NCBI GenBank assembly: GCA_965649765.1
Contig: OZ287755.1
Coordinates: 59,396,001-59,460,000 of the forward strand
DNA from: Bispira polyomma
Lineage: Eukaryota
Reading direction: 5' to 3'
DNA length: 64,000 nt
Shown: positions 21,976-61,719 of the stretch, piece after piece
Layout of the letters: every line of letters starts with the position of its first letter
Position numbering within the stretch: position 1 is the stretch's first letter
Notes under the pieces: model-generated
The model's input: the letters and a program-made list of their open reading frames with translations, nothing else
Told to the model about the DNA's origin: nothing
Databases searched by the model: none
Made by a program: the position numbers and the translations under genes

Positions 21976-22514
21976 CAATGTAAAACATGCCACAATTTTA
22001 GATCATATATCTAGTATATATCTGATAAGAGCATGCATGGACCGATGAATCGGTCACATATCTTCAACGTGATGTAACAAACCAACAGATATAAATGAAA
22101 AGACAATCTCTTGGTAGAATACAAGCATTCGGAGCACATTCAAACCTATAATATATTTGATCTTTCTTAGGTAATTTCAGGCTGTAATTGAATAAATTCA
22201 ACACTTTCGTCGATTTTTATTGTATGCATAATTAATATTGTGATAACTAAGATACATATTGTGAATCCTAATTGAAGCCTTAGCCAATTCTCTTTGCAGG
22301 AAAAAATAGAGATCAGACCATTGTCCGTTTATGTATCACACTGGTGCTATTGGAATAGTGTGTACTGGTTTCTATGTAACCTCAAGAGTAATTGTTTTCT
22401 GTTGTTGCAGTAACACCAGAATTTAAAATCTGCTGGGATTTCAATTTCGTCTGTGACATATATACATTCAACTTTTTTTTGTTTTTGCAGTTACACCAGT
22501 TGACTGGTCAAAAT

Positions 22515-23333
22515 ATGGGAACCTTCCTAGGTTGTGCCTTTCCTGGCACAGTTATGATACTCTATGCCATATGGTGGACCATACACATAAGAAGGCGGAA
22601 GATGGTTTGCAGTACTAAAGGTATAGACTTCTACAACACAATCACATATCCTTGCTTTTGTTTGTGTGTGAAGTTTCCCATTGAAGGAGTGGTCAAAATC
22701 CTGGTTTCGTTTACTGGCATGATCGTTGAAGGCTATATAGCTTCTGAACCAATCAGAGATGGACATGTAATTGCAGAAAATGACTGGCATGGTTTCTATA
22801 TTGGTGACGTACTATACTCTTTCATGTATGTGGTATTCTTCATCTCTGGAATCTGTGATGTGAGAGTCAACGTTATGAACAAACCAGAAGGCATTAGCTA
22901 TGTCACCAGTGCTTTGGCTGTAGCCATAGAAGCCATACTGCTTGTGTTCAATGTATATTGGAGTGATAGGTTAAACATAGTTCTTAATGGGTTGTTACTG
23001 TGTGTGTTGTTGTTATGTGTGGTGTGCATTCTGGTGGAATGGAGAAACAAGAGCAATTTATATGTGGGTATGGCGAGAATGTATTTGGTCTTTTTGCAAG
23101 GAACCTGGTTCTACCAGGTAGGATTCATACTATATCTGGGTCATGAACAGTGGGATGGTGACTCACATGAGTCTATTATGTGGGCTGTTATATACTTTGT
23201 TTCACACATGGCAGGTGTGTTCCTGGGAATGGTTATCATAACTAAAGTGACATCCTGGATCTTCAGAAATCATTGCAAGATAGGGAAATGGTCAAACGAT
23301 TATAAATATACTAAACTTCCCAATTTTGGATAA
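22515..23333 (+). CDS. TMEM45/DUF716-family membrane protein, paralogue 1 (divergent, 272 aa)
   Basis: ATG at 22515 follows the acceptor ttgcag| at 22490. It aligns over its full length with 44595-45479 and contains the family motif LQGTWFYQVGFILY and multiple hydrophobic helices. Confidence 0.88.
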   Translation: MGTFLGCAFPGTVMILYAIWWTIHIRRRKMVCSTKGIDFYNTITYPCFCLCVKFPIEGVVKILVSFTGMIVEGYIASEPIRDGHVIAENDWHGFYIGDVLYSFMYVVFFISGICDVRVNVMNKPEGISYVTSALAVAIEAILLVFNVYWSDRLNIVLNGLLLCVLLLCVVCILVEWRNKSNLYVGMARMYLVFLQGTWFYQVGFILYLGHEQWDGDSHESIMWAVIYFVSHMAGVFLGMVIITKVTSWIFRNHCKIGKWSNDYKYTKLPNFG

Positions 23334-38059: not shown

Positions 38060-38470
38060 TTGATTTTTCTCACTTACAAATAATGCTTGTGTCACCTTAG
38101 TTCTGGATTACTTTAGTAGTTTAAATGTATGCTTCATGATTTCTTTTATTACACGTGGAGATCGATCTATTTTATTGACATCTATTTTGTTCTCAGAGAA
38201 AAAAATCTACTTTGTCCGATCGGTATGTCCCCCTGGTATGGCCTTGACATGTATTATTGGTTCAAATCTATTGAAGTTAAATGTATCGTGCATGTGTTAT
38301 TCCAATATCTCACAAACATATATGTATATATGTGTGTGTGTGTGTGTTTTTATATATACAGGAGCAGGTGGATAATATATTGATATTAACTACTCTTATT
38401 AGAGATGAAGTTTTATATTATAAACTGTGAATGATTAGAAACAGAAGGAATAATTACTTGTAATTGTAAT
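38060..38470 (+). repeat. Segmental duplication of the TMEM45 upstream region (paralogous to ~19720-19907 plus 21201-21430; homology resumes at 40795-41210 = ~21760-22230)
   Basis: Shared blocks include TTAGTTCTGGATTACTTTAGTAGTTTAAATGTATG and TGGTTCAAATCTATTGAAGTT.AATGTATCGTGCATGTGTTATTCC. Confidence 0.88.
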
Positions 38471-40795
38471 TATACTTTTATTGCACTTAATCTCCCCTTA
38501 AGAAAGGGGACTCCAAGGCACACCAGCACAAAAAACAGTAATCCAATATCCAAAATCAAGGGACAGAAAAAGGTCAGCACACAGAGCACGCAGGGGGATG
38601 TTTGAGACGAAGGTGGGTATGCTTTAGTGTACAAGTAGGTTTTAAGCTGCTTTCTAAAACAGGCTAGTGAGGGGGAAGCACGAATCACATCAGGAAGAGC
38701 ATTCGAAAAAATAGGAGCATCAAATGCAAAGCTGTAACCAAACTGTTTAACCGACTTTTCAGTAGATGGGTCTACGTCTGGTATTATAGGAACTACTGTA
38801 AGTGGAAAGATATGGGGCAAAATACTTTGGAAACCCAGTGTGAAGAAACTTATAAACAAGTGTAGCTGTCTTAAACACTGAACGCTGTTCAACAGGGAGC
38901 TAATGCAATTTCTTAAGAACAGGAGTTATACTGGTGTATCGACTGGTGTTTGACTCAATTCTAGCTGCACTGTATGCATTGTAATTTACGTAAGTTAAAC
39001 TTTGAGAGACTCCTGAAAAGCGAATTGCAGTAATCCAGTCTACTACTGACAAAAGCATTGGCCACAAGTATAGAAGCATCATAAGTGAGAAACCGCGTGA
39101 CACGTCTAAAGTCCCGGAGTTGCACAAAACAGCTTTTGGAGACACTCTGAACGTGTTTAGAGAAAGAAAAGTCAAAGTCAAACCATACACCCAGGTTCTT
39201 GACAGAATCAGCTGGGCTGAAAGGACTACCCAGGATGTCAACTGGAAACAATGCTTTCAACTTATCCCTCTGTTGTTTTGAGCCAAGGATAATGAACTCA
39301 GTCTTGTCGAGATTAAGTTTGAGTTTACCAGTTGACATCCACTCTTTCACATCGTGGAATGATCAATGGTGTCAAAGGCAGCAGAGAGGTCGAGCAATAG
39401 CAGGGCAGTAGGTTCACCTTTTGACAAAGATAGGTGAACTTCATTTTTTATAGAGAGAAGAGCTGTCTTAGTCGAATGACCTGTTTTATACGCAGACTGG
39501 TATGGGTTGTCTAAATCGTGGACAAAGATGTGATCTAACAGTTGCCTAGCAACCACACGTTCAACCAGTTTTGATATGAAACTAAGACCAGATACAGGGC
39601 GATAATTCTTTAGGTCATCAACTGGAACAGAAGCCTTCTTAATAAGAGGAGTAACCACAGCTGTTTTAAAACCATCAGGTACATGTCCCTCAGTAAGTGA
39701 GCAGTTTACACGCTTTGTAATGGATGCGAGTAATATATCATTACATTCTTTAATGAGAGATGTTGGCCATGGATCTAACATGCAGGATTTTGTAGCCGAG
39801 TTACTTATTATTTTACTAACATCATCTTCAGAGACTCTGGTAAAGGCAGTGATTTCGGGAGGATCAGAAAGAGGATGAACATCAATTTTAGTTCCAGAAA
39901 CAACAAAAGTATCTCTAATTCTCTTAATTTTGTTTGAAAAAAGGAAGCAAACTTATCAGCCAGTGATTTATCAGAATCATGGCACGGGAGTGCCACATTG
40001 GTATCCATATTAAGGGTCTTGCGCAATTCGTGCCATAGCCTCCTGGAGTTGTGACTGTTATCAGAGATAAGTTTGCTATAATACTCCGACTTATCCTCGT
40101 TAACAAGTACATTGCACCGAGCAATCTGGCGACGAAATCAACTTCTATTTTATGGATACTTGGCCCTTCGCCAAGTTCTTTCATATTGGCGCCTGAGAGA
40201 TTTTGCCCGTCGGTATGAATCAGAGAGCCAATGCACAGAATCTTTCCTTGACATTCTAGATACAAGTGGTGCATGCTTATCTAGTACATCACCCAAGTCA
40301 TGTATGTATTGTTCATAAAATTTGGCTACAGAATTGGCAGGTGACTTAATGAAGGAAGTATTCTCGAGATCAGTACGGAGGTCAGACATGTTAATACGGT
40401 GGTACCTCCTATAATGCACTGTATTTGGAATATGAGTCACCTGTGGAGGAGAAGCAATTGAGCATTTGACTAATGCATGATCCGATATGAAATCGCAGAC
40501 TTTGACATCCACAATAGCATCCTGATCACAAGGAGATAAAATAAGGTCCAGAATGTGACCATGCAGACGGGTAGGTTGTCTAACTGACTGTTTTAGATCG
40601 CATGAAGAAAGGTCATAAATTTATGACCATCACCAACTGGTGCATCAACATGGATGTTAAAGTCACCACAGATATGATATGAACTGTTAATGGATGACAA
40701 TAAACCAACAAAAGACATGAATTCTTCTAAAAAATTACAGGTACATGATCCTGGGGGGGCGATAGACACAGGCAAGCAACAGTGAGCGGCCATAC
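38470..40795 (-). mobile_element. L2/CR1 LINE ORF2 (APE endonuclease plus RT, internal deletion)
   Basis: Endonuclease peptides LLACVYRPP, ICGDFNIHVD and SDHALV. RT peptides KNYRPVSGLSFISK and LLDLSAAFDTIDH are joined directly to KLKLNLDKTEF (YADD core deleted). C-terminal LKTYLY. Confidence 0.92.
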
Positions 40796-43700: not shown

Positions 43701-44594
43701 ATCGAATAGATCGGGTCTCCCCTGAAATTTTTATGTATTTGGTTCTTTTAGTAAAATATTATCTTATGTCTGCAAATATATAACTTGGAATGACATAAAT
43801 AACAAAACTCCCCAAAAATAAAAAATGAACTTACCTTTGTAAGTTTAGGAAGCAATTAACAGAGCTCCACTTAACTCCCCGAAAATAGCAATTAAACATA
43901 TATGTGTACATTATACTGCTTGACGTTTTTTTGCTAAAGACAAGTATATGTCTTTTTTTTAGAAGTTGATACTTGTGGGTGCTCTCAATGATAAAAATAT
44001 ATGTTTACAAGCGGCATAAGTAAGCGATAATCGAATATTTTACCTAAAATATTGTCTTTTTAGAAGATATTTTAACTACAGCCCGATCTATAAGGTTAGT
44101 TTTAATGTATCGGGGACCATTTCTATAGCCACTTCATAAAAATTAAATAAAATTATAAAAAACAAATATATAATTAAGAAACGAGGCTGTGTATAAGCAA
44201 GGAAGAAAGATGAAAAACGATTGCTTATTGTCAAACGTCCTGTTAGCGTACGCTTTATGTTAACGGACACCTTTGATCTTTCTGTTTGTATTATCACCTA
44301 CTGAAGACCGACCCTGTAGTGACTGTGTCCTTGTCAATTTCGACTGCCATCTAGTGACTGGTTCACTCGCTTTGTAACTTTTTGTAACTTGCGATGTAGG
44401 GGCATTATCATGATATGGCCACAAGGCCATACTTCTCTTGATGCTGGTGATCAAACTTGTAGTTTAATGAGTCTCCCTGGTGATTTAGGAATAGTATGTG
44501 TATTGGGTTATATGTAATTATAGGCAATCTTAAGGTTCTGTGACCTTGATTAACGTTTCTGTTTTTACAGTAACACCAGCTGACTGATCGAGAC

Positions 44595-45479
44595 ATGGGA
44601 ACCTTTCAAGGTCATGCCTTGCCGGGCACATTCATGATGGTCTTTGCTATCTGGTGGACCATACAGATCACAAGGCGGAAGATGGTTTGCAGTGCTAAAG
44701 GTATAGACTTCTACAACACAATCACATATCCTTGCTTTTGTTTGTGTGTGAAGTTTCCGACTGAAGGAGTGGTCAAAATCCTGGCTTCATTAACTGGCAT
44801 GATCTTAGAAGGCTATGCGGCTTCTAAACCAATCAGAGATGGACACGTTGGTGCTGAAAACGACTTTCATGGTTTCTACATTGGTGACATTCAACATATT
44901 ACAATGTACACATTCTTCTTCTTCTCTGGAATCTGTGATGTAATGGTTAACAGAAAGCTTAAGATGATACCTGAAGGCATCGACTACGTCGCCAGTGCTT
45001 TGGCTGCAGCCGTGGAAGCCATACTGTTTCGGTTCCATTTACATGGGCGTAATGAGTTGGACAAAGTTCTCCATACATTGCTACTCTATGTGTTGGTCTT
45101 ATGTGTGGTGTGCATTCTGATGGAATACAAATACCCATTCAATTTATATGTGGGTATGGCGAGAATATATTTTGTCTTTTTGCAAGGAACCTGGTTCTAC
45201 CAGGTAGGATTCATACTATATCCGCCACTACCGGGTCTTGAACATTGGGATGGTGACTCACATGAGTCTATTATGTTGGCTTCTATAGTCTTTGCTTGGC
45301 ATATAGCAGGTGTGTTCCTGGCTATGATTACTATATCTGGAGTGACATACTGTATCTCCAGAAAGTACTGCGATATATGGAATGGCTCAAAGGAGTATAG
45401 ATGGACTCAACTTCCCAATTCAGTAGATAATGAGTCTGCAGATGATATAGAATTAACTAAAAATGAATTTGATGTTTGA
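44595..45479 (+). CDS. TMEM45/DUF716-family membrane protein, paralogue 2 (canonical, 294 aa; TMEM45B-like)
   Basis: MGTFQGHALPGTF, QHITMY.FF..SG, FHLHGR..LD..LH.LL, LQGTWFYQVGFILYPP and FAWH are all family hallmarks. Acceptor ttacag| at 44570. Confidence 0.93.
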   Translation: MGTFQGHALPGTFMMVFAIWWTIQITRRKMVCSAKGIDFYNTITYPCFCLCVKFPTEGVVKILASLTGMILEGYAASKPIRDGHVGAENDFHGFYIGDIQHITMYTFFFFSGICDVMVNRKLKMIPEGIDYVASALAAAVEAILFRFHLHGRNELDKVLHTLLLYVLVLCVVCILMEYKYPFNLYVGMARIYFVFLQGTWFYQVGFILYPPLPGLEHWDGDSHESIMLASIVFAWHIAGVFLAMITISGVTYCISRKYCDIWNGSKEYRWTQLPNSVDNESADDIELTKNEFDV

Positions 45480-47778
45480 AGGAAAGTATCAACCACTGAA
45501 GTGTGAATGCTTTATTATACTTACCATTATGTTTAGTGAGACTTACAGTTTTAAGCAATTGTAAAATATGACTGGTTTGTGTGATCTTGTAACTGTTTGT
45601 TAGGTTTTGTTTGTAGAAAAGATATATGTTATGATGACTTGAAAATAGATTTTACATCGCTTTCATTAACTTAGGTCATATCACAATTGCCAGATTTAAT
45701 GGTGGAAGCAACTGATACTGAAGCACTGTCATCCGTACGGGACAGTAAAACCAGACTTTTGCAAATATACTGATAAAACACAAATGATCAACATTACTAA
45801 CAATAATATCATATATATTTATTTTACTCACGCCATTTCATGCCTTTCATCAGATAAGCCATTGTTTTTTTCACTCTCTCTCAAATGGAAAAAGTCCATA
45901 TTCATATCTTTTAGGTCACATGACTATGATGTAATGAAATGAGGTCACACCAAAGATTTCTTGTTTACCAACATTTGCCTCCCGATATATTTGAGAGGTA
46001 TGCATTACTTCATATTGAATGAGTAAGTTGTATATATTTTGGTTTATCATAGAGTTTTGTGGTAAATTTAGAATAATAAGATAAAGGAGTAATGGTGTTT
46101 CAAAGTGCATTTAGATAGTTAACCATATGTGAATGTATGTATACTTCATCTTTAATATTCTGTATGTTATTTTTTAAGAGTAATAATTTATGCAGAAAAT
46201 TTCAGTTTATGTTAATCTTTCTTTTCAGATAAACGAAAGATGCCACTTTATTTTTAATGTGAAATATGACTTGACATTATTATAATGATAGATTTATGTT
46301 ATTCAGGTATTGTTTATTTATTTTTTTATCCATGGCATTACTAACTAAATTTCAGTTTAATATTAATTTTTTTTTCAAAAGATACCAAAGATACCACTGT
46401 ATTTTTAATATTAAATATGAGTTAAAAAAATTATGACACACCTTTATGGTAATTAGGTATTTTTTATTGATTGTTTTATCAATGGCATGTATTGAATAAA
46501 TATAATAGTAAAACTACCCAAATGGTGTATATTAAAAATATATGACGAAAGAAGATAATCAATACAATAATATACACCACCAGCGTGGTTTTACATTTAT
46601 TATCTTCTTATAACATGTAATTATTATGCTTATATAGGTTAAAATATAACAAAAAAAACAGCCAGAAAAAGTCCTAAAATGTTGAAAATTCAAGGCAATT
46701 ATATAATATAAACAATTTTACTGATTTGTCACCTTAAAGAATTAGCTCTAAATACAAAGGTATAGGGTACTAAAAATCGAGTTTTGTATGCAATAACATC
46801 CCATGATGCTTATATGTTATTTTGGTCAACAGGTTTTAACACTTTATGTTTTAATTTGTTTACGAGGACAATAATAAAATAACCCAAATCCCTTTTTCAA
46901 AATCCCTTTGTTTATGTTTTAAACCCTTACATTCCATCATAACATTATCATGCAAATGTAAAAGAAGTAAATGTAAAGAAGTACAGATTTGTTACCACAA
47001 ATAATTAACTTCAAATTCCCATTTATAAAACACTGAAAATCTAATTTAAGATACTATTATGTAGTTAAAGGTTTATTTTTTATGCTAACTACACTTTTTA
47101 CCAACTTTCTGTCTGAAATATTATGTAAAATTGATACAGAAAAAATGTTGAAAATTCCTGTAACTACTACAGTTTTGATATACATGTTCATAAGCGCCGG
47201 ATGATATGGTTCATTGTATCACCTGGCTCGTATCAACCCCAAATTCACTGTATTCACTGCCAAGTGAATAATAAAAGTAAATAATTATGTAATATAATTG
47301 GTAATATATATGCCTACCGGTTTTTTAGATTGATTATTTGTCATCAAACATTGGGCTTTAGGTAATCTCTTGAGATGTTTCATTTGATTTTGTTTATGCC
47401 AATGAATTAGTGATATCAGTATATTTGACAATGTAATGAACATGGTGCATGTTGTATGAACAAAAAACTGAACGTCTATTTTCTAGAATGAAGAATCTTC
47501 TAAATATTCTTTGACAGATCTGCACTTATTTACTTAAATATTCAGTCTTTTTTCACATAATGTGTATACAGTCCCCGTTAGTAAGGTTGAGATAAAGGTC
47601 AAAGTTATCCAAGTAAGGTCAAGTTATGGTTATGTTGAAGTTTGAAAGTAAGAGGTAATAAAAGATTTCACTTTGAGGTTCTATTTTTACATGTTAGTAT
47701 TCTATGTACATGAAGTTACAGATAAAATAAATGCTTAAAATTTTTTAAACATGACAAATTTAAAGCCCCAAGCCAAAC

Positions 47779-48756
47779 CTAAGTAGAGTGTGAGATGGCA
47801 GAGGCAAAAGTCAAAAGGACCACTGATGCTGCCTGAGATGTATTCTGTAGATATGTCCACACTGCTGAGGACCTCCAAAGGCCATGGGCCATAATGTTCT
47901 GTAGAGAAACGTTCTTATTAAATACAAAAGAGGCCCCCGACCTTCTAAAGGCATGAAACCCATGTGAGCTATATTGAATGCTGATATGTTGTAAAACTGT
48001 TTGTAAAGCTGATCTTACATGTGAGTCGACAATTGGGTGATATGGTGTAGTTTTTGAAGCAAACAGTGGTGCCTTGTCCGAAAGTTGTCTAGACAAAAGC
48101 AGTTTCTTGAGAGCTATTAACTGGGCAGATGTGTGAATTATCTAGCACTGGGACCTGTATGATGTGAGTATCAATTCTATTTTGCAAATTCTTAGCCCAT
48201 TTTAGAATCATGTGGGCACCTGGGTGGCCAAAAATGACATCCTGCCTAATAAAGTGCCTTGTTGGATCAAAAGCTGATTTGGAATGGGGAGCTATGTTCG
48301 AAAGCCTCAAGAACCCAAAGAATGCCACTAAGAAAATTGATCTGAAAAGTATTGGATCTTCAAGTATGTCACAGGCCTTAGATATAAGAATCAACTGTTC
48401 TATAGTAAAGATTCCTTTAGGTTTTGGTCTGAATACTGAGTTGTGTGTTAGACTTCTAGTAAAAAGTGCTACTGAGTTGTGTACAAATGGAGTAAGATTC
48501 CAGTTTAACTTGGAAGCTACAAATTTTATTGCTGCTAAATAATTGTTCACTGCCCCAGGTGATAACCAGTTTTGCACCAGGTATTCCAGGAATGCAATCA
48601 CTGCATGTACGTTCACAGTTGTAATACCTGTAAATTCTAGAAAGGCTAAGAAAGTTCTAAATTGAGCATTATAGGCTGTCGTTGTCTTTGGTCTCAAAAC
48701 TAAGTCAATCCTAGCACTGGCTGAAGACATCAGGATTTGGCTGATGTATGTGGAAC
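47779..48756 (-). pseudogene. Tyrosine recombinase (frameshift near 48090)
   Basis: Core-binding-like N-part (TTTAYNAQFRTF...FLEYL) plus catalytic motifs FFGFLRLSN, HAFRRSGAS and HGLWRSSAVWTY. Confidence 0.92.
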
Positions 48757-48762
48757 CTGAAA

Positions 48763-49305
48763 TTATATTGACAAATCCAGGTTGAAATATTCAATTGGTA
48801 TTTGTTTCCACTCAAAATCACTGTCAATTTTGTTTATGAGATCTTGGTCAGAAGCTTTGTCTGAATATAGTCTAGACAGAGCATCTGCAATAACATTTTT
48901 CTTACCAGGTATATGTCTAATTTGTAAAGAAATATCATAAGTAGCTGTTAGTAACCAGATATTTCTCAAACACAATGCTAAGAAACTATCTCTGGTTTTG
49001 TGTGATTCAACAACCAGAACCACAGCCATGTTGTCACAGTTGATCATAAGACTACCATGTCTCCACTTCTCTGCCCATACGCGTAGCGCAATCACTATGT
49101 TCAGCATCTCGAGATGTACAATTGTTAATTTTTCATCGAATAAGTCATGAAATGGGGTGGCATATACTTCTCGGTTCCAAACGCCCCCAAATCCTGTGAG
49201 GCAAGCGTCCAGATGCAGCTCGTCTGCATATGGTATACTAATGTGATTAATAAAATTAACACCATTGTATTTTTCTAAAAATTTTATAAACCAATTCCAG
49301 GTCAT
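48763..49305 (-). CDS. DIRS-type RNase H domain
   Basis: LHLDACLTGFGG, VHLEMLNI, INCDNMAVV and HIPGKKNVIADALSR. Confidence 0.92.
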   Translation of the reverse strand: MTWNWFIKFLEKYNGVNFINHISIPYADELHLDACLTGFGGVWNREVYATPFHDLFDEKLTIVHLEMLNIVIALRVWAEKWRHGSLMINCDNMAVVLVVESHKTRDSFLALCLRNIWLLTATYDISLQIRHIPGKKNVIADALSRLYSDKASDQDLINKIDSDFEWKQIPIEYFNLDLSI

Positions 49306-49325
49306 ATTTCATTTCATTAGTAACT

Positions 49326-50666
49326 TTAAAGCGCTTGTTGGCATGCTCTAAAAGCAGCGAGTAATCTATTAATGAAGATGCGTGCAGGTGTCACACATTT
49401 GTGAATGTATAAAAGCTTTCCTAGAAGTGATTGAAACTTATTTTTAGATATATATTGTTTGAGCAAAACTTCTACGCAAACATCACACACTTCCTTAAGC
49501 TTTTCTGGTTGGATACTTATAATGCCCTTAATGATGTCAAAATCAATGCCAAGGCATGTAAGTTTAGTAGTAGGGGGAGTCAATTTTTCTTGGTTCATTG
49601 GAAGACCCAGCTTTTTAAGCAATGTGTAGAGTTTGTTGTAGCCCTCGTTGGCTGTTCCTTCTGGCGCAACGCAAACGTAGTCGTCAATGTATCCGAATAC
49701 TTTAAAGCCCTGTTTACACATGTGAGCAGCGTCCGTGCAATGCTGAAACGCAGCGCTGCCATGAACCCACCCGAACGCAATGGCAGGGTCCACGTAATAT
49801 TCACCCTGCCAAGAGATTCCTAGCTTAATTGCGTCCACAGGGTCAACTCGTAGATTCCTAAACGCCCTGGCCACGTCAATTTTGAATAAAGTGGCGTTCT
49901 CAGTGTCATGTATGGCTTGTGTTATATCATCAATTGTGGGGAACTTTAATGCGAATGCCACGCCATCAAATTGATCCCTATCAACATTGTCATTCAGCGA
50001 ATCGCCATATGGATGAGACAGGTTCAAAATCACTCGACGTTTATCACTATCTTTGGGTCTTGTAAGGAGTGGAGAACAATGGTAGTCTGGAATTTTAACC
50101 TCTTTAACTGGCCCTAACATAGCACCTAAATCACTTTCTTTCTTAAGATATTCACCCACCTCATAGGAATACTGCAAAGCAGAGTAATGATTTTTGACCT
50201 TAACATTGCCTAACCTATCAGGTGTTCTTAAGCATAGAGGGAAACCAAATGTGATGTATTGAAGTAGTAACTTGTCAGGATAATCCTGTAGCATATATTG
50301 CCAAGCTTGTGTATTTAAACCAGAACTCAATGGTATTCTGGCTTGTTTGTAATTTGGTACTCCTGTCTGCTTAATTACTTGTGCAATTGCAATCATGTCT
50401 TCTACTGTTCTAATATGTACTGGTTGCCTATCTGGACTTTGAAATTTGAAGTCAGTGTCTGATAAAGCAAGGAACCCTACAGTCTTATTTTTGTCATGTA
50501 TGTCTGTGATATTTCTGTTCAGAGATTCACTAGCCTTAAGCATATATGTCATTTGGGAGAAGAATTCGAACGATGCAGGGTGAGTATATTTTCCATCGCA
50601 ATAACTTACCATGCTCTTAGTAGGTTTTACACTACTATCTTCAGTCTGTACCGAGTTGTCTGTCAC
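49326..50666 (-). CDS. DIRS/Ngaro-type reverse transcriptase
   Basis: SPLLTRPK, RRVILNLSHP, FKIDVARAFRNL, AFGWVHGS, GYIDDY, LTCLGIDFD and QSLLGKL. A disruption separates it from RNase H. Confidence 0.93.
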   Translation of the reverse strand: MTDNSVQTEDSSVKPTKSMVSYCDGKYTHPASFEFFSQMTYMLKASESLNRNITDIHDKNKTVGFLALSDTDFKFQSPDRQPVHIRTVEDMIAIAQVIKQTGVPNYKQARIPLSSGLNTQAWQYMLQDYPDKLLLQYITFGFPLCLRTPDRLGNVKVKNHYSALQYSYEVGEYLKKESDLGAMLGPVKEVKIPDYHCSPLLTRPKDSDKRRVILNLSHPYGDSLNDNVDRDQFDGVAFALKFPTIDDITQAIHDTENATLFKIDVARAFRNLRVDPVDAIKLGISWQGEYYVDPAIAFGWVHGSAAFQHCTDAAHMCKQGFKVFGYIDDYVCVAPEGTANEGYNKLYTLLKKLGLPMNQEKLTPPTTKLTCLGIDFDIIKGIISIQPEKLKEVCDVCVEVLLKQYISKNKFQSLLGKLLYIHKCVTPARIFINRLLAAFRACQQAL

Positions 50667-50860
50667 ATCTACATTTCTAATATTACAATCTGTATTTTTA
50701 CCTTCACAGCATCCAATTAAATTATTAATTAAATCTTCTAGATGCTCAGTATAGTTTTTACCACTAGACTTTTAACACTCCATATCTTTCTTGTAGTAGT
50801 GGAAAGCATTACTGGCTTGTTTCTGTTGTTGCACTGATTTACATGTGATTTTATCAAATT

Positions 50861-51496
50861 TTACATATGCCAGGTCGTTAACTCTGTGGCCAAGATTTCA
50901 AAAGAATTAATAACAGATAACATACCGTTAGGTTCAAATTCAAAGGGAGTGTAGCTTTCTTGTCCTGTCACTTCATCAGTCTGGCTATAATAAAAGCCGT
51001 TTTTAAAATTTTTAGAGCCCCCAATGTAAAGTACTGGCAAGCTTTTTGATGTGGTCAAACAAAATAAGTACCAATTGGTTACATTAAGTTTTACCTTTAT
51101 TGGTCCCCATTCATGACTGCCACTCTGAATGTGGACTGTATGATTTTTATTCTTACAATCTTTTATTTGTACACAGGTGGTCGAGCTACACTCCCCTGTG
51201 GTCAACTTGACCATTCCTTGTCCCCTGCTATGTGTAAGCAATTGCTGCTGACTTTGGACAGCTCCAACGTCACCATACGTGCTTCCTGAAATGTTCTCAC
51301 ATAATACATTTGACATGACATTAGTTTTATGAATATAATTTCCTCTTACATTGGCTTCCCTAAATGATACCTCAGTTCTGTTACTATGGCTATATTTGTC
51401 ATTGACCATATTTGCACTTTCATAGTTCTCATTAACTCCAGTATTTACAATATCTTTCAATGTTCCATATTGCTTAACTGGCTGTCGAATCAACAA
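50861..51496 (-). CDS. ORF of unknown function between gag and RT (probable N-terminal extension of pol)
   Basis: 211 aa, inside the element. 50667-50890 is in the RT frame with a single TAA, suggesting one formerly continuous pol ORF. Confidence 0.5.
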   Translation of the reverse strand: MLIRQPVKQYGTLKDIVNTGVNENYESANMVNDKYSHSNRTEVSFREANVRGNYIHKTNVMSNVLCENISGSTYGDVGAVQSQQQLLTHSRGQGMVKLTTGECSSTTCVQIKDCKNKNHTVHIQSGSHEWGPIKVKLNVTNWYLFCLTTSKSLPVLYIGGSKNFKNGFYYSQTDEVTGQESYTPFEFEPNGMLSVINSFEILATELTTWHM

Positions 51497-51499
51497 TTC

Positions 51500-52729
51500 C
51501 TAACTATTTTTTACATTCTGGTTATCAGATTGCTTGCTGGAATTTACCTTAAAACATTTAAATTCAGGGTGGTTAGATTCTTTTCCGAGGACTTTGGAAC
51601 AGTACCAACATTGATGTTTGTAGTTTCCATGGTCATTTTTGTGACTGCATTTACCGTTGTTAAAGAGCTTACATATTGTCCTGTGTTCATTGGTCTGAGA
51701 GGTAACTTGATGGTGATTGTTAACCATGGCCAATTGGGACGCACTCATCCGATTCAGCGCCCATTGCGTGTGATCCTGCCACGTTAAATGCCCCTCCTCG
51801 ACTTCATGCATATTAGAGGCCCATGCAGTTCTCACTACCGGCCATGGAAGCGACGAAGCGTCTCGCAATGCGAAAACAATCTGGGTCATCATATCCCTCA
51901 TTGCTGTATTGTCTGCAACCAGCAGGGCGTTGGATATTTGGCCTGCTGTCCCCATTGTGGGAGTGACAGATCGTCATAGGTGGGGCGTTTACACGCAAAA
52001 GTGGAGACGTTGGTTGCTAAGCAGCCCTCGTTCGGCCAACGATACCTAGGGTCGACTGTGGCAACATCGGTAGAATTAAATCTGCCAGACTTAACTCTCT
52101 GGGCGGTCTTACCTTGAGATAGTTCTCTCTGAGCTAGAGATTCGTAGCAAGCCAGCTGCCGTGTCACTGCTGACTGAACATCAGGCATAGAGCGTAGTGT
52201 CTAAGTTGGGAACAATTCCATCCCTGTTATACTCGTGTGGTGTGGGCCCCAGTTGTGGCTGCGGAAATCCCCGACCGTCCCTGAACCCGACATCTGACGG
52301 GGGAGTGTATCTGGGCAGTGGTAAACTGGTAGCAATATTGCTGGCCCGTCCGAGAATAGAAGCACTGTTCGTGGTTTGACTAGTACAGGTACCCGAGTTA
52401 CTGCCTGAGGCCGTTTTCGCTTCTACTTTCTCCAGCCTGGACTCTAATCGTCTTAGAATTGCCAACATCTCGTTGGGAGGATCAGCCCCTGCGTGGGATG
52501 TAGCCGGTGGGTGTATGAATTGTGAATCTACCTGGAACGAGTCAGCACTCGACGGTCGAGTTATAGGTTCCTCTACTTCATTAAGGTGGCTATGAAGATT
52601 GCGAACAATATTGTTAGTTACCTGTAGTTCATCTGTCCCAGTGGTAGGTTTTGACACCTTTGTTTTACGGCTCGCTGGTTTCTTTGGCTGAACGGGAGTC
52701 TTTTTTGTTCTACCCATTTCAATTCTCAC
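51500..52729 (-). pseudogene. gag-like ORF1 in three frameshifted pieces, with C-terminal zinc finger
   Basis: Basic N-terminus (MGRTKK), coiled segment (LRRLESRLEKVE), KSGR, YDDLSLPQW, WPVVRTAW and CKLFNNGKC...HQCWYC...HPEFKC. Confidence 0.8.
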
Positions 52730-53048
52730 ACAAATCCAATAGCACCTTCCTTATAGTATAAAACAGGCTAAAATATAACTTTTAAAACCATAAACTAAAA
52801 ACCAAGTTCATATAACTCCCCATGGAAGTTAAAATATTTTTGGTTGTTGTTTCTTCAATGTCGAATTTCAATATGGAGGTGTAGCCCCAGAAAAACCGGG
52901 AATAGCTAATTAATTAAGGAATTTGATTGGCCCTTGTAGTTATGATAGAATGTACTGAGGATAGCTATACCTAAAATTTTTTAAGGTCAAGTGATATAAT
53001 TAACGTGGACTGAGATAGCAGTCCCCTGAAGTAGACGTGCTTGACACA

Positions 53049-53104: not shown

Positions 53105-53757
53105 AGTAAAGCATATTGTGTTGCTATGTATACAAAATCTAGATGTTATTTACTTCTTTGAAAATCTATTTATTGTGTTGGCTTATTGTGCCCCTCCCCT
53201 CCCCCCCCCCCCCCCCCAATATTAACTTTTGATAACCGATGAACATGAGGAAGGTTCATATTTAAGAAGTGCTTACCAAACCTCCTTAAAATAAAGGTCT
53301 CCTTAAATTTGAGGGTTTCCTTAGATTTCCTCATTCATTTGATAATATGCTTTTCACTAGCCGTCAGTTTTCACTTATATTCAAGGATTCATGGAGACCC
53401 TAATTTTAAAGGCTCCTTCATTCAATCTCAAGGACACCTCCTTCCTTAATAAAGGGAGTGTCACAAAACCTCTTCAAATTAAAGGAGGCCTTAAAATTTA
53501 TGGTTTCTTCCTTAAATCTTAAGAAAACTCAGAAGGTACCTTAGTTTCCTCTTTTAGATAAATAATTAAGTATTTTCTTAATTTATGCATACCTTTGATG
53601 GTGTTTTTTCCTGTTTATTGTTTATAAGTGTTATGCAAACATGTAAGAAAGAAATAGTTCCTTAAGTTAATTTTTATCTGAAAAGTAATTGTCTTCATAC
53701 TAATTACCTATACTGTAGCAGCCATAAGTACTTTAACAGTCCATCCCAAATTGTGGT

Positions 53758-54015
53758 GGGGGCCACGATGGCCTAGTGGTTAGCAAGCATTGCGCTTCAC
53801 AATCACTGGTCTCTCACCTCTGGGCAGCGTGAGTTCGAATCCCGTCGATGCGTATGTGGGAAAGGTGGTAGTTCCTTCCTGTGGGCCGCTGGTTTCAGTG
53901 CAGAACCTTGACCGACTGTATGCAGTGTTTCCTCTAGCGTTTCCATCTACCTGTCCCAATATAACCTATTAAAAGGTACTAGAGTGGACGTTAAGTATCA
54001 CAATTCAAATTCAAA
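53758..54015 (+). mobile_element. tRNA-derived SINE family A, copy 5
   Basis: TSD CCCAAATTGTGGT at 53745-53757 and 54016-54028. Confidence 0.93.
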
Positions 54016-56609
54016 CCCAAATTGTGGTTTTCTTTAAATGCTAGTGTTTGAAGGTGTTTATGCACTCTACTGAGTTTTAAAGGAACAAAATGCAGGAAAT
54101 AGGAATTTTATGTCAATAAGTACTTGTAGAAATACTTGTAACATGTGTACCTTCATTTTTTCTAGTTGGTTGTACCCCATATAATTACTGGTAAATATGC
54201 ACTGGAACTTCACCAGAACAAACTATCACATTTTGTAAAAAGAATATTAACTTACTAAACCATATTCAAAACATTTAGAAATAAAAAACACTGAATATTT
54301 TTTAACATTAGATAAAAGTGCTTAAGATAATACGTCCTGTATTCTTCAATATAATTTGGCTTACTCAAACACACTGTTTGAAAAATCAATGACGAGTTTA
54401 TTGTATATTACTATAAAAATCCTTTTTCCATCATTTCTGAATTGTATATATTTTTTTTCAAAGAAAAAATTCAGAAAAACATGCACACATATTGTATGCT
54501 CCATGGAATGTCTTTTTGAGGAGACCTTTGGTAACAGGTGCTAAAAAGTAAATTATACCAAAGTCATGTTTAAAAAATAGGTGGAAACTATCACAATTTT
54601 AAATAAATTGTATATTATAATATAAAAACAACAACAAGCACAATTATTTATGCAGCAAGAACAGTGAAACAATAGTACTTTACAATACAAACTCCTATAT
54701 GCTTTATATTGCTAAGGTCATTCCCTACCCCACAGGACAAAGTGTGAAAAAAGACACAGTGGGATTTGAAACATTCATTTTCTACTCTACTTTGTTTTGT
54801 ATAGTATTTACAATTTAAAACATTATTATGACTTTTTCCAGAGATGTTTTTTTAAGAGTGCACTGTCAATGCACCCAAGCATAAGGTTACGATATAAGCT
54901 GTTATATTCTTTATAAAACACCCGATCATAATGCGCTCATGCTACTTTAAAAGTTACTAGGGGAATGGTATGGCCCCAATCACACGATGCAAATTAATCA
55001 AAAGACTGTAAAATTTTAGTTTTGGATTCTTTGAATTACTTTATAAAGATTTGAATTTTAAAAATAATAATTTTTGTAAACATTTAAAATCTTTTTAATG
55101 AAGAAAAATTATGGAAGTTATGGCCAATTATTAGTTAAGTTATAAAAATTTTTGAAAAAATAAATTGTTCCAAAGTTTACAGCAATAAGTAAATGCCCTC
55201 AGATGGTCTGTAGTGCCCTCTCCTTTGAGAATGAGGGCTGTCCATTAGAATAAAACAGGTCAAATGAAATCTGAGGATTCTCTGCTGGGGTATAATATTA
55301 GAGGTTTAAAACACAAAAGGTAAGGAGACATAGTGCTTTTAAACCATTGAACAATACATCCACACATTCAGAATTCTATTTGTCAAATATAATTACAATT
55401 ATTTAATTACAATTTTATTTACAATTATGAAGGACTGAATAAACTCAATTACTCAATTACAGTTTCAATTACAGAGCTTCAATTATAATTACAATTACAC
55501 AGTTCAAACTTACATTTCAATTACAAAACTTCAACTGTTGTCTTAAATTACTCATAATTTAAGCATTTTTCTATAAAATTATGTTCAGCAAAAACATTGT
55601 GGGATGAAAGTAATATCAAAAAGGGAAAATTCAATTACTGTTTCATTAGCAGTTTCCTGTAACTAATTAGCATAAGGAAATGTAGATACTCTAGGTACTC
55701 TTCCTTCACTGGGTTTGACTAGTTTAAAGGATTATATCTCCACAAAGCCAATTTTGTCATTTTGTTACATCTATATAATGACATATATAATAAATAAGGG
55801 ACAATTAATACCGTCTCAACTCCAACCAACTCGTCAACATAATTTAACCAACTGCCCACAAAATCTTGCTACTTCAAATAGTTTATTTATATGTATTCCA
55901 ATAGTTGATTAAGTCAGAGCAATGTGGGTGATATGCAAAACCTCTCAGATCAGACCGTTTAATTTCCTAATATGAAAGTCAGTGCTTAAAAAAGGTCATT
56001 TACATAAACCTAGTTTAGGATATAAAAAAGTCAAAATAAATAAGTGCTAGATTACGAAATCACATAGACTAGCGATAGAATACATTGAAATATTTATGTT
56101 TTGTGCCAGGTTTGGTTGGTTCCGAGTTGGTTTCAGTGGTAGTAAGTTTTTTTTAGTTTGTTGCAATGATGATGACTTGACTGTATACACTTATAACCAC
56201 TTGGTATCCATGGACCCTAGTTGGTGCCTGGATGACCCTAGTTGGTGCTTGGATGAGAGACTCTGTAACAGTTCTCCATCTGGTGTGGCATGAATGCCGC
56301 ATGGTTGATGACACTTTTGGGGTACAGCTGTCTTTGTGGTGGTTTTGGTGGTAGCAATTCCCTCCAGTATGGATTGTACCTCTGTGCATAATGTAAATTG
56401 TATGGTACAAACTGATCAACTTGAGTTGGAGGTTGTTCATGCAAGGCAAAGTTAGCAGGCATACAATGTGTGCCGAGGTTAGATTGGGCTGAAGCACTGT
56501 ATTGTCCAGACTGTGGCTCAGGTGGCAGGCAAGGATGTTGTAAATGTTTTGTATTTACCACTCCATGTGGCGATGTCAACTGATGCGGCAAAAGAAATGG
56601 CAATGGTAT

Positions 56610-57956
56610 TCAACTTCTGCTTACATTTTCCAAGTACTTGGTTTTTCTTGCGTCAATCTTCCTAGTGTACATTTCTCCTCTTGCATAGGCAGAAGATTCA
56701 TAATAACTGTGACTGGGAACCTTGTAGTTACATTGTTCTTTTGGTTTCCCTCCATCTAAATGGTTCATCCATTGCTTGGCTTTATTGATGTGATAGTTAG
56801 GACACATATTGTCAGGATATGAGTCTGGAAAAGGCCTTTCAAAAGATGGCTGTAAAGAATGAAAACTCGGTAGTACTTTGCAAAGGGGTTTGGCTTGATT
56901 TGCCTTTGACTGATCTTGCCCAGACTGCATTGGCCTATATGGTGAAGTAGTGACTGTACCTTGGTCATGTTTTGATATTTGTTGTTTTATTAAATGCCAC
57001 TTGTCTTTTATTAAGCTTGTATTGGTGAACTTTGGAGATATCAATGATTCTTCTTTTACAGAATGCTGTAAGTCAGTTTGTTTCTTATCCTTATTACAGC
57101 TGTTTTGATCAGAAGTTGGAAAACTGTGGATATAGTTATTGTATGGTTGATATTTTGTATTTTTAGTCTTCTGCGGGAGTCTTGTTGCTTCACAGTTAAA
57201 ATTTGTATGGTTAACCGGTTCCTTGTTAGCTTGAGTTAGTTTGTTTTGACAGTCATTCAAGAAATATCTCCTTGTAGGGAAGCTCAAGTGCGCTTCATAT
57301 TTTACGTTGGATTTTTGCTCTCCTTGTCGAAATGGGATGTTACTATATCCGGGTGTACTATTTATGTTGAGATCAATATAATCCAGCTTGTCACATTCAG
57401 TATTTGAAGTACAATATGGACTCTCATTATCACCACTCTCATTAATTGGCCTTAGTGTATCGGTGACATTATAATTACTCGTGTTTATGCCCATTGTGAC
57501 AGGTGAATTATCCCACACTATCCTATTGCACCCTACAGTGTCCATTTTAATTGTGGGATATCCATCTTCCTTTGGTTTACTCTTGTTACAGTAATTACTC
57601 CACTGATCAATTGTTGTAAATCTTTTGTCTCTCAGCTCATTCATAGTACAGTTCCTTTTGGCAGTCACCATTTCCCCATTGAGGGACATGACACCTTCAT
57701 TAGTGTAGAGATCATTTCTAGGGAAATTTGCAGAATCTGACACCTCACCATTACTAAACTGCATCTTGTCAGAAGTAGGAAGACCGATGACACCCGGTGA
57801 ACAATCTGTATTTGTATCTAATTTGCTGGGCTCTTTAATGCAAGGTATAATATTCGAACTAATTAGGCTTGCTTCTAAGATATCTTTTGTCTTGTCAAAA
57901 TAGTGCTCTGGTGATTCAAGCCATTGAATGTTCCCTTTGTGATTGTCGTCATAAAT

Positions 57957-57989
<33 letters not shown>

Positions 57990-60900
57990 TGATATATCAC
58001 TGACATCTATCTGCAGGAGTGTTTGTATGGTATCTTTGATATGTAGACCAAATGTATCCTGCCCTTTTACATGGAAATATGATGGCTTTCCTGGTTCCTT
58101 TTCAAAGGTATCGTTGTTCTTCTCTTTACTTAGCACACCTACTCCATCAACACAATTTAAAGAATCTGGTTTTCTATCTGGGTTGTTACTACACTGTGAG
58201 GTGTTAACAAGTTCAGAAAGCTTCTGTGAGTAATATGAGTCTGTATTTCCAGGTTTATAATTATGTATACTAATTGTATTTTGTGCTGCTTCTTCAGTGC
58301 TTGGATCTTTGTGGATAGCATATTTTAAGTCATTGTGTATGTTATTATATTTTTTGTACATCTGACAATGTTGATTTGCCATTTCTTCTATATGCTTTTG
58401 CACAAAAATATCACTGTGCTTATTAGATTTACTATCTAGGTTTGTCATCAGAACTGCAGACGTATAACTTCCTCGCTGTTGTTTGTCTTTCAAATTTTCT
58501 CCACTCGTACTGATCTCGCAAGATCTTCCTGCAGTATCTTTATCGGGTACTTTACTGATATCGGTAATACGCTGTGGACATTTTTCATAGTTCTTCATAT
58601 ATATGTTATTCTCTATGCATTTAGGTTGAACAAGTTTGAACCCTCCAAACACCACTTTTGAATTTTCATATACCGATAAACACTCTCCATATTTAGTTCC
58701 ATTACCACCATTTTGCTTTTGATTTATCTGATGGTTGTGTGTGCTGTTCGAAACATTAGTTTTAGTGTCAATAGCTTGATCAGCAAAACCATTAGTTTGA
58801 AGTTTGCTGTCACTCTCATTTTGACTTATTTGTGATCCCAGCTGAAATATACCATTAGGTTTAGATTCTACGGATATCCAGACTTTAGATTCAGCATTTG
58901 TTATCTTGTCATTGTCTTCCTGAACTGCAGAATTCTGCTTTGCTGGATCAGTAAGTTGCTTTATTGTTCTGCATTTTATATTACTAGAACCAGGCGCCAC
59001 CGGTATATATGTAGCCTCACTTGAGGTATTGACATATGTCCCATTATATTGTAATAGCTGAAAATCTTTTGGACAATTTTGACAATCACCATCAATCAAC
59101 TTGGTCACATCTGTAAATTTAGACAAGCTTAATTTTTTTGCAGGAGCATTGCTCTTTGCAATTGGACATTTGGCTTTGGGAAAGACATTTTTGGGTTTTT
59201 TGAGCCCTTTGAAATGATTCGGACGTGCTATTGCATTCAAGCCATATTTTCCTGAATATTTTGGTTTGACTAGAAGAGGATCTATGTTAAAACCAAAACA
59301 ATGTTTTCCTTTAAATTTATTCTTAACACCTTTCCTGTCTAGTATTTGGGCAGCTTGGGTGATCGATCGATACATCTGTTTCTTATTTGTTAATGTTTTA
59401 CATTCTGGTGTATTCAATTGTCCCTTACCCGAAATGAAACAGTCAACAGCAAGCCTTGCCACATTTTCTGTGCTCTCCTTTGGACTGGAACTTGAACTTA
59501 GTAGTGTCTGATCTGAATCTCCTGTGTCAGAATGTTCACTTTCCTCTCCAAAAGTGTGTGATATCATCTTCATCTTTGCAATATAACTTTTAAAAGGGGA
59601 GTAGCTATTCTTAGTAGTATTTGGTTGTTCTCTTTTAGCAGCACCAGGCTGTTCAATGTCCAATGGTTCATATGGACCATTTAAAGCAGCGTTACCTGAA
59701 GAAATATTGGACACTTCATCTGGACCAGTGCTACATTCATCTCTATTAGGTCTAGTACAATGAATAGGGAGAGATGCATGGTCGACAGCAGTACTATGCT
59801 GTTCAGACGCCAGTTCTGTCGGACAAACGATTTCATTGATGTCTGAAGGAACTTTCACAGATCTATTTTCGATGCTAATACGTAGTTGGTCATTCTTCCA
59901 GATAACATCAACTGTACCTTGAGCCTCTTTAGTGATAGCGTTTGTCACACATATGGAAGGGGTCTCTTTTACAGAATTATGTTTTGGGTGTATGTGAAAA
60001 GCCATTGTTGTCTCATCTTCCACCGTGTTTGTGTCAGTTGTTGGTATGCTTTGGGAATTGTCATCAGATGTCATTGTTACACCATTGCAGTTCCTAAAGC
60101 TATCGGATGGTTTTTGTTGAGCGTCCTTTGTGTCAGAGTTCTGTTTAATAGAACACAGTTCATCATTTAGAACAGAGCTGGCAGATAATTCCTTCTTGTA
60201 GTCATCAAGATCAGTTTCCTTCATAGTATTTCCTTCATCATAGTCACTTCCAGAAATAGTGTCATCACAATATACATTTCCAGCATTAGGCACTGTTTTG
60301 TTTGCATCAGAACAATTTGTTTCATTTAAAGATATCTTATAGAACGACGAATCTACAGTCTTTTCACTGTTTTGACATTGTTTTGTACTGATAATATCAG
60401 ACTTGTCCACATCCAATTCACCGTTGGTATCATTGGTTGTGCAATTCTGTTCAGTGTGGTGACTGTTTTCTGTAGCTGTAAGGTCATGTGTAGTGGCAAC
60501 ATATTCATTGTTGAGGTATGCCGTTTCTACAAGAGTATGCCTACTGCTTGTAGGCTGACTAATTTCAATGTTGACATTGTCCATATCATTAGAACCAGTC
60601 TGCCCATTGTCCGTTAAATCTTTGCCTACAGTATCAATGATACTTGTGTGAGTATTCTGAAACCAAGAAAGAGCATTTCGATAATCATTAGGCAAGTTGC
60701 CCCTAGGGCCATTAATTGCAATACTCTCTTTACATTTACCAGATACATCTGTCCCCATACTGTTTATTCCATTATCCCTCACATGCATAATGTTAGTCTC
60801 CATAATTTTAGAGGCCAACTCTGCAACGTTGTCAGTATTTGGGCATTCAGTTCCGTCTATTATAATATTTGTATTCTCGGTGCTGCATGGCAAGTATCTG

Positions 60901-61297
60901 ACATTCTTCCTAAAATGATTTACATTATCATCTACTCCTGACATGACCACTTTTACATCTTTTGATATACTATAGTCTTCAAGATCACAAATATTTTCCT
61001 TACATATCATAGTGTCAAAATCATCAATATCTGTACCATTAATCTCAATAATTTTTGAAGTAGTTTCCATAACCTCCTCAATGTCGTCACATGTTCTGCC
61101 ATTAATGATATACTTATTAGCATACTGAAGGTACACAGGTTTACAGGTGGCTGTAGGCTGTTTATGTAAGTCTTTTTGTTGCTCTGTCATCATTTCTTTC
61201 TCGTCCGTTTCTCTTCTGTTGCTACTGTACAGAGATGCAAGCTTTCTTCGCTTTGGTGGATATATGTCTGGCAGAAGTAGGTCATCTGCTGCTGTGG
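56610..61297 (-). CDS. Giant exon of an uncharacterised large, low-complexity (probably disordered, nuclear) protein
   Basis: Acceptor tttttcag| at 61298, phase 1. Open for ~1560 codons in AT-rich DNA, with PPKRRK (NLS-like), a poly-D tract and S/T/N/D/K richness. No domain recognised. Confidence 0.85.
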
Positions 61298-61719
61298 CTG
61301 AAAAAGTTTTATCAGGTAATTTTCATTGCAACAAAACACATGAATTGAAATGATGATGATGTGTTAACTAACTAAAATATGATCCAGACATTAAACTTGT
61401 CTTCTAGTTGTGTAAATATTTGCAGACAGCCTGAATTGTTGATTTTTGATTTTGGTGATAAAGTCAGGCCTATACGGAACAGTAAAAAGGGCCACCTAAA
61501 TTTTTTTTCTATATATATATCTTGATAAATCTACTTTATGTATCTCGACTTATCAAGCTATTTATCCCAATTATCAACATAAATGTACATTTTCATTAGG
61601 TACTGTCCCTAAGTATTTATATATGTGTACAATTTTTAAGGAGTCACTTCTGAGCTCAAAAGAAAATTTAGTACAGGGTCACATAAAGCATACTTTGTAG
61701 GTCTTCCTCTGAATGCGGG

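Follow-up and report, generated by a model that had tools for sequence, protein, structure and literature searches.

Introduction

Ngaro retrotransposons, of the order DIRS, carry gag, reverse transcriptase (RT)/RNase H, and tyrosine recombinase (YR) on one strand, lack a methyltransferase (MT), and have split direct repeats arranged A1...B1-A2...B2; in many of them, YR is in the -1 frame and the overlap is short, according to the available parts of three sources (PMC4157794, PMC13465315, PMC3783388). Here, we describe an element of this type in a 64,000-nucleotide stretch of Bispira polyomma contig OZ287755.1 (the window), where it runs on the minus strand from 53048 to 47568 in the order A1, gag, pol (RT, RNase H), YR, and B1. 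We propose, with a probability of about 0.86, that this family splices a donor in the middle of gag to an acceptor behind pol, which would fuse the N-terminal part of Gag to YR. The literature, as far as the excerpt available goes, proposes a frameshift for YR (PMC13003380), whereas splice signals are found here; gag and pol in frame across a UAG are a further difference from the published Ngaro elements.

Subgenomic splicing is familiar from other retroelements. Drosophila copia splices to express Gag alone, and in the env mRNAs of retroviruses and gypsy and the pol mRNA of foamy viruses, a 5' donor is spliced to an acceptor where pol ends, which gives access to the most distal open reading frame (ORF). 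These env and pol mRNAs add no or few Gag codons, whereas the fusion predicted here would include 176–332 of them with two conserved helices, and its product would be a recombinase. Another case is the Ty1/copia element EVD of Arabidopsis, for which the available part of the source describes a retained intron in the genomic RNA and splicing (shGAG) that sets the protein ratio (PMC5580714). The EVD splice removes the enzyme sequence and leaves Gag alone, whereas the one proposed here would drop half of Gag and all of pol to yield a fusion of the integrating enzyme.

In the proposed scheme, the unspliced RNA would be both the genome and the mRNA for Gag and, probably by UAG readthrough, for Gag-Pol. 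Joining a phase-1 donor in mid-gag to a phase-1 acceptor just behind the pol stop would yield a subgenomic mRNA for a fusion of the Gag N-terminal half with the complete YR.

Splice signals and their conservation

Predicted exon 1 is the coding 5' part of gag (52113–52717, minus strand, as are all parts of the element), which encodes a basic N-terminus, a predicted coiled-coil helix, and a conserved helix up to Q-G. It ends at the predicted 5' splice site CAAG/GTAAGA (52107–52116; the slash marks the cut, here between 52113 and 52112), which reads CTATCTCAAG/GTAAGACCG on the minus strand, with a gag Gly codon starting at 52113 (phase 1). The RNase H stop TAA at 48765–48763 is followed by the predicted 3' splice site TTTCAG/G (stop and site together 48756–48765, cut between 48757 and 48756), and 48756 is position 2 of a codon in the YR frame, again phase 1. 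The predicted retained intron of 3356 nucleotides (nt) between the two cuts (48757–52112) would comprise the 3' half of gag, with its helical domain and zinc knuckle, and the whole of pol; YR (47779–48756) would form exon 2. A preliminary description of this DNA had given the donor, the acceptor, their phase, and a 52113-to-48756 junction in exactly these terms, and each of them was confirmed. Taken alone, the window makes a weak case for the pair: AGGTAAG occurs six times and TTNYAGG 77 times on both strands of the 64 kb (once and six times, respectively, within the element), and the phases would agree by chance one time in three. At the level of the family, the pair of signals lies far beyond chance.

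The family sample comprised 141 copies, including the window copy, in 34 subfamilies at a 12% cut. In a first search, 150 of 10,753 candidates were scored, and 100 of the 149 other matches were fetched (the best ones plus a spread); a second search with a distant YR, in which 121 of 13,055 were scored, gave 40 further loci, picked before their DNA was read. Both searches favor well-kept copies. Among the 26 subfamilies whose YR frame is of sufficient length, YR protein identity was 45–90% (median 61%). The second set of 40 copies gave the same donor and acceptor pattern as the first.

We compared the two sites with the U2 donor consensus and the NYAG/G acceptor pattern. The donor region was mapped in 126 of the 141 copies, with G/GT in 120 and G/GTAAG in 118 of these, in phase 1; the U2-type word MAG/GTRAG is kept at the nucleotide level. 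Among 300 conserved degenerate codon columns of gag, pol, and YR over the 34 subfamilies, only two are codon-invariant, namely the donor Gly (GGT, 30/30) and the Lys that follows it (AAG, 31/31), and the Gln ahead of the Gly is CAA in 30 of 31 subfamilies. Background usage in the first set is 27% GGT for Gly and 38% AAG for Lys. Under coarser grouping (22 or 13 groups), the donor Gly stays the sole invariant fourfold column (1/96 and 1/112, respectively), and one or four Phe columns turn invariant too. The fixed silent bases coincide with positions -2, +2, and +5 of a U2 donor, and of all sites that score at least 8 of 9, the mid-gag donor alone recurs among 18 representatives, in 17 of them. 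An overlapping ORF behind the invariant gag codons was rejected, as just three adjacent codons are constrained.

In 133 of the 141 copies (five placed by hand), the acceptor is an in-phase YAG/G located 22 codons ahead of the R-P motif conserved in YR; five of the other eight keep the word with a nearby indel, two have AA, and one is without the region. Counted by subfamily, TTNYAG/G is present in 34 of 34, with T at -6 and -5, Y at -3, A at -2, and G at -1 and +1, and position -4 takes all four letters; it corresponds to NYAG/G preceded by pyrimidines. Protein constraint does not account for these bases, because they lie past the pol stop and, read in the YR frame, would encode Ser, Val, Thr, Ala, Leu, or Ile with the third base fixed. 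I-S/V-G/D, the translation expected of the acceptor, appears in this register in 20 database YR proteins; this evidence is at the protein level only, and gene callers favor proteins with an ATG at that point.

More distant relatives came from one scan of metagenome contigs, which yielded four loci (L131–L134) from 47 pattern matches; their YR shares 35–46% identity with that of the closest subfamily. In each of them, YR starts at a pyrimidine-rich YAG in phase 1. Two contigs include the 5' part of gag, and in both a phase-1 G/GTAAT comes directly behind the same helix of gag, with G-N encoded in place of G-K. Three contigs contain pol; their acceptors lie 24, 34, and 334 nt past the pol stop (334 nt in L131), and the relative frame of pol and YR varies. 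L131 and L133 are in phase 1 at both ends despite differing spacing and encoded residues. In L134, CTAAC lies upstream of the acceptor. The conservation of donor, acceptor, and phase 1 on which the preliminary description had made its proposal depend is found across the 34 subfamilies and the distant contigs, at silent positions. As a separate observation, the approximately 330 nt between pol stop and YR acceptor in L131 (3618–3951) are non-coding and contain further splice-like words (AAG/GTATCT near 3709 and TTCTTCCAG/G near 3777), possibly an extra small exon.

Predicted fusion protein

The Gag part of the predicted fusion would span about 176–332 amino acids (aa), depending on the subfamily. 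The N-terminal length of about 200 aa given in the preliminary description holds for the window's own group, but not family-wide. In a model of one natural Gag (mean predicted local distance difference test, pLDDT, of 57), the donor Gly211 follows helix 187–209 and lies in a low-confidence linker, and a confident helical domain (257–340) and then the Cys/His knuckle both come past the donor. In the YR model (pLDDT 84), helix 1 begins at residue 4 after the acceptor. The fusion would keep whole domains, because both cuts fall at predicted domain boundaries: Gag(N)-YR would retain the basic tail and two predicted helices of Gag, and would lose the folded helical domain and the zinc knuckle. Possible roles of the retained helices are anchoring the recombinase to Gag particles or steering it. 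Foldseek comparison of the Gag model with the PDB gave no match at E 0.001.

Alternative routes to the recombinase

Several observations weigh against the proposed splice. No Gag-YR junction was seen in RNA, for which no runs were listed, or in protein, and gag is precisely joined to YR in none of the 140 other loci. The subfamilies share ancestry, and their counts are not independent events. The pyrimidine tract of the acceptor is short (TT), and a branch-like TTYRAY at -30 to -25 is equally dictated by Phe-Asn/Asp codons. Another candidate donor exists early in gag, with a Val codon that is GTA in 16 of the 16 subfamilies with Q/K-V there. In 33 of 34 subfamilies, YR briefly overlaps pol and is in its -1 frame, and L133 is also -1. 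Met stands at YR codon 10 in 13 subfamilies, and the ATG right behind the acceptor of L134 fits an internal start as well.

Direct traces of the fusion were sought in several collections. A Gag-YR protein was absent among 120 of 191 matches listed at 178–569 aa, and the one longer match was a join of RT, RNase H, and partial YR; nor was there one among the best 150 of 12,876 representatives. A profile of the pre-donor gag helix had no match in 270 proteins, and a search with gag residues 150–200 gave three candidates, none of which scored. These protein sets look like gene calls on DNA, which makes the missing fusion a weak negative. Equally weak is the lack of spliced retrocopies among 27 of 2044, 40 of 84, and 40 of 288 candidates scored, as the ranking favors full matches. 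The 48757–52112 joint was not among 15 listed of 29 joints from three runs that seem to behave as genomic DNA, judging by long contigs past both ends, and this is not evidence either way. A search of viral contigs found no relative, and Rfam gave only chance matches, on a TA repeat.

The alternative that survives best, although we regard it as improbable, is that both sites are genuine splice signals with other partners. The acceptor would then use another donor, and the gag donor would bind U1 to protect or regulate the full-length RNA. A candidate partner in the window is the second, weaker donor-like site CAG/GTAACT in phase 0 (52616–52625, minus strand, cut between 52622 and 52621), which takes the form (C/A)AG/GTA or CAA/GTA at gag codon 30–36 in the family; with this site near codon 32 as donor, YR would be begun at an internal Met. 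Its invariant GTA favors such a partner, as does the one-in-three prior of phase agreement, and the available part of PMC5580714 reports that U1 counters premature termination in EVD. The early site is, however, missing from subfamilies 1–11 and 14 and out of phase with YR, whereas the mid-gag donor alone recurs at the 8-of-9 level. The N-terminal region of pol holds no conserved alternative acceptor in 19 copies, and phase 1 at both ends in L131 and L133, where spacing and residues differ, also speaks against mispairing.

Still less probable is that ribosomes undergo a programmed -1 frameshift where the end of RNase H briefly overlaps YR, which would give a (Gag-)Pol-YR product. Poulter and Butler (2015), as quoted in the available excerpt of PMC13003380, describe a -1 overlap of the YR ORF with RT/RH and regard a programmed frameshift as its probable route of expression, a rival that the preliminary description had not named. 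The prevailing -1 layout agrees with this, but the fixed 6-nt gap from the pol stop to a phase-1 acceptor yields the same layout by itself. An X XXY YYZ heptamer lies inside the overlap in 8 of 34 subfamilies and is missing from the other 26, so that no slippery site is conserved. The open overlap before the pol stop is at most 10 nt in 13 of 34 subfamilies (4 nt in eight; zero in subfamily 27, where YR is in frame 0), and there is no overlap in L131, with its 334 nt gap, or in L134, where YR is in pol's frame behind a stop. In fungal Ngaro elements, YR may be in frame or shifted, by the available part of PMC3783388. A frameshift accounts neither for the invariant gag codons nor for the invariant AG past the pol stop. 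Judged by these patterns, a -1 frameshift fits poorly, and our finding would contradict the frameshift proposal for this clade.

Least probable of all is translation of YR alone, with either an internal promoter or termination-reinitiation at an ATG close to the pol stop: the Met at codon 10, with an upstream in-frame ATG in two more subfamilies (one as ATGA over the stop), would allow it in 15 of 34 subfamilies, and many database YR proteins begin M-I-S-G, though gene callers favor such starts, but no ATG of the kind that the preliminary description had named as a competing explanation is conserved across the 34 subfamilies, 19 of them lack a usable one and have their first Met at YR codon 40–80, where a start would cut the SAM-like domain (residues 17–78), and the gag donor would be left unexplained.

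Gag-Pol expression

Besides the splice of mid-gag to YR, the proposed scheme includes a route to Gag-Pol. In the window, the gag stop TAG, the G behind it, and a C-R-R-C-Y-A word in frame with pol (51479–51502, minus strand) form a predicted readthrough signal. All 27 subfamilies scored end gag with TAG, and 26 of them have G at +1; the word is found at +13 to +18 after the stop in most subfamilies and one codon later in the window's. Pol itself stops at TAA in 31 of 34 subfamilies. Its frame is open for 330–416 codons before an RT-proximal motif in 17 of 19 copies, and the other two frames begin later; a shuffled stretch from one such copy has about 26 stops. We considered the gag stop TAG/G as an acceptor for pol and rejected it, since the upstream sequence is purine-rich and the distant contigs end gag in TGA or TAA. 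UAG readthrough is the likely route to Gag-Pol. Gammaretroviruses read through UAG-G, and tobacco mosaic virus (TMV) has a CAR-YYA signal. The present family resembles them in that gag ends in UAG-G with pol continuing in the same frame, and a CAR-CYA-like word lies near; it differs in that the word lies 12 nt downstream rather than beside the stop, and in that 12 folded examples share no common hairpin.

The element and its copies

We assign the window element, from layout, repeats, and domains rather than from an RT tree, to the Ngaro type, as a decayed copy with the structure A1-gag-RT/RNase H-YR-B1. A gag-like ORF, an RT/RNase H ORF, and a YR ORF follow one another on one strand, as in Ngaro. 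The gag has no Pfam match and is named by its position and its C-terminal Cys/His knuckle; YR matches Phage_int_SAM_1 and Phage_integrase. Pol (48763–51499) contains a variable N-terminal region, RT, and RNase H, and ends directly after RNase H, where no MT family was found in five pol proteins at E 0.1. The 5' repeat A1 (52828–53048) is 96–98% identical to A2 of the full-length copies L033, L034, and L044. DIRS1-like identity (inverted terminal repeats, an internal complementary region, and MT) is ruled out by the direct repeats and the lack of MT, and the Ngaro-like class named in the preliminary description is borne out by ORF order, split direct repeats, and the absence of MT.

The window copy stops at B1 (47568–47771), without A2-spacer-B2, and retains only A1 and B1. 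Relatives 95–97% identical run on past B1 into A2, a spacer of about 0.9 kb, and B2, and both repeat pairs (A1...B1-A2...B2) are present in 63 of the 141 fetched stretches, including L033, L034, and L044 of the window's subfamily. L031, L032, and L123 also end at B1 in this way, which would be the expected outcome of B1 x B2 recombination. The spacer between A2 and B2 has no ORF of at least 80 aa in 11 copies and therefore does not hold the SGNH hydrolase that the available part of PMC9210276 describes for Xenopus Ngaro. Another copy, L149 (G000:C10:27545285-27554526), has an internal deletion of the gag 3' half and most of RT, and has kept both splice sites, 840 nt apart.

Six frame breaks mark the window copy, near 52196 and 51947 in gag, 50890, 49345, and 49293 in pol, and 48120 in YR. 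The preliminary description was right in calling it frameshifted: with one of the breaks ahead of the donor and another within YR, this copy cannot yield an intact fusion.

Other features of the window

A GC-richer insert of about 230 nt with a tRNA-like head on the plus strand lies at 53745–54016 between 25-nt direct repeats (D14); it is probably a short interspersed element with a target duplication and has no Rfam match. Two single-ORF DUF716 (TMEM45-like) genes at 22392–23333 and 44574–45479, both on the plus strand, are likely a local duplication. On the minus strand, a 1570-codon open frame of low complexity without a Pfam match (56610–61322) probably represents a single very large exon encoding a disordered host protein, and 38470–40620 contains pieces of another retroelement, with an RVT_1 match at 39350–39952.

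Implications

We found no report of a gag-YR splice or of Ngaro readthrough in the literature covered; the main reviews lie outside this coverage, and an earlier remark may exist. The available parts of PMC7192593, PMC9341512, PMC4157794, PMC3783388, PMC13003380, PMC9210276, PMC6681497, PMC12477816, PMC8547959, PMC3266345, PMC4495291, PMC13465315, and PMC5580714 contain no gag-YR splice, and the 12 of 13 passages covered in that of PMC7192593 concern an engineered marker intron. What is new here is a predicted junction with exact coordinates, where the proposal in print is a frameshift.

In Cafeteria Ngaros, loss of ORF1 accompanies a changed target preference, according to the available part of PMC8547959; a Gag(N)-YR fusion could explain this shift. 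We tentatively suggest, while thinking it somewhat doubtful, that splicing of half of Gag to YR is an ancient and general Ngaro route, from animals to diatom-like protists, in which one RNA would give three products (Gag, Gag-Pol via readthrough of UAG, and spliced Gag(N)-YR) and the Gag half would tether or target YR.

If the proposed splice is true, the real recombinase would be a Gag fusion that ORF-based annotation has overlooked, and work on Ngaro YR would have used an N-terminally incomplete protein. Gag would be linked to target choice, and an integrating enzyme would join the products of subgenomic splicing in retroelements.

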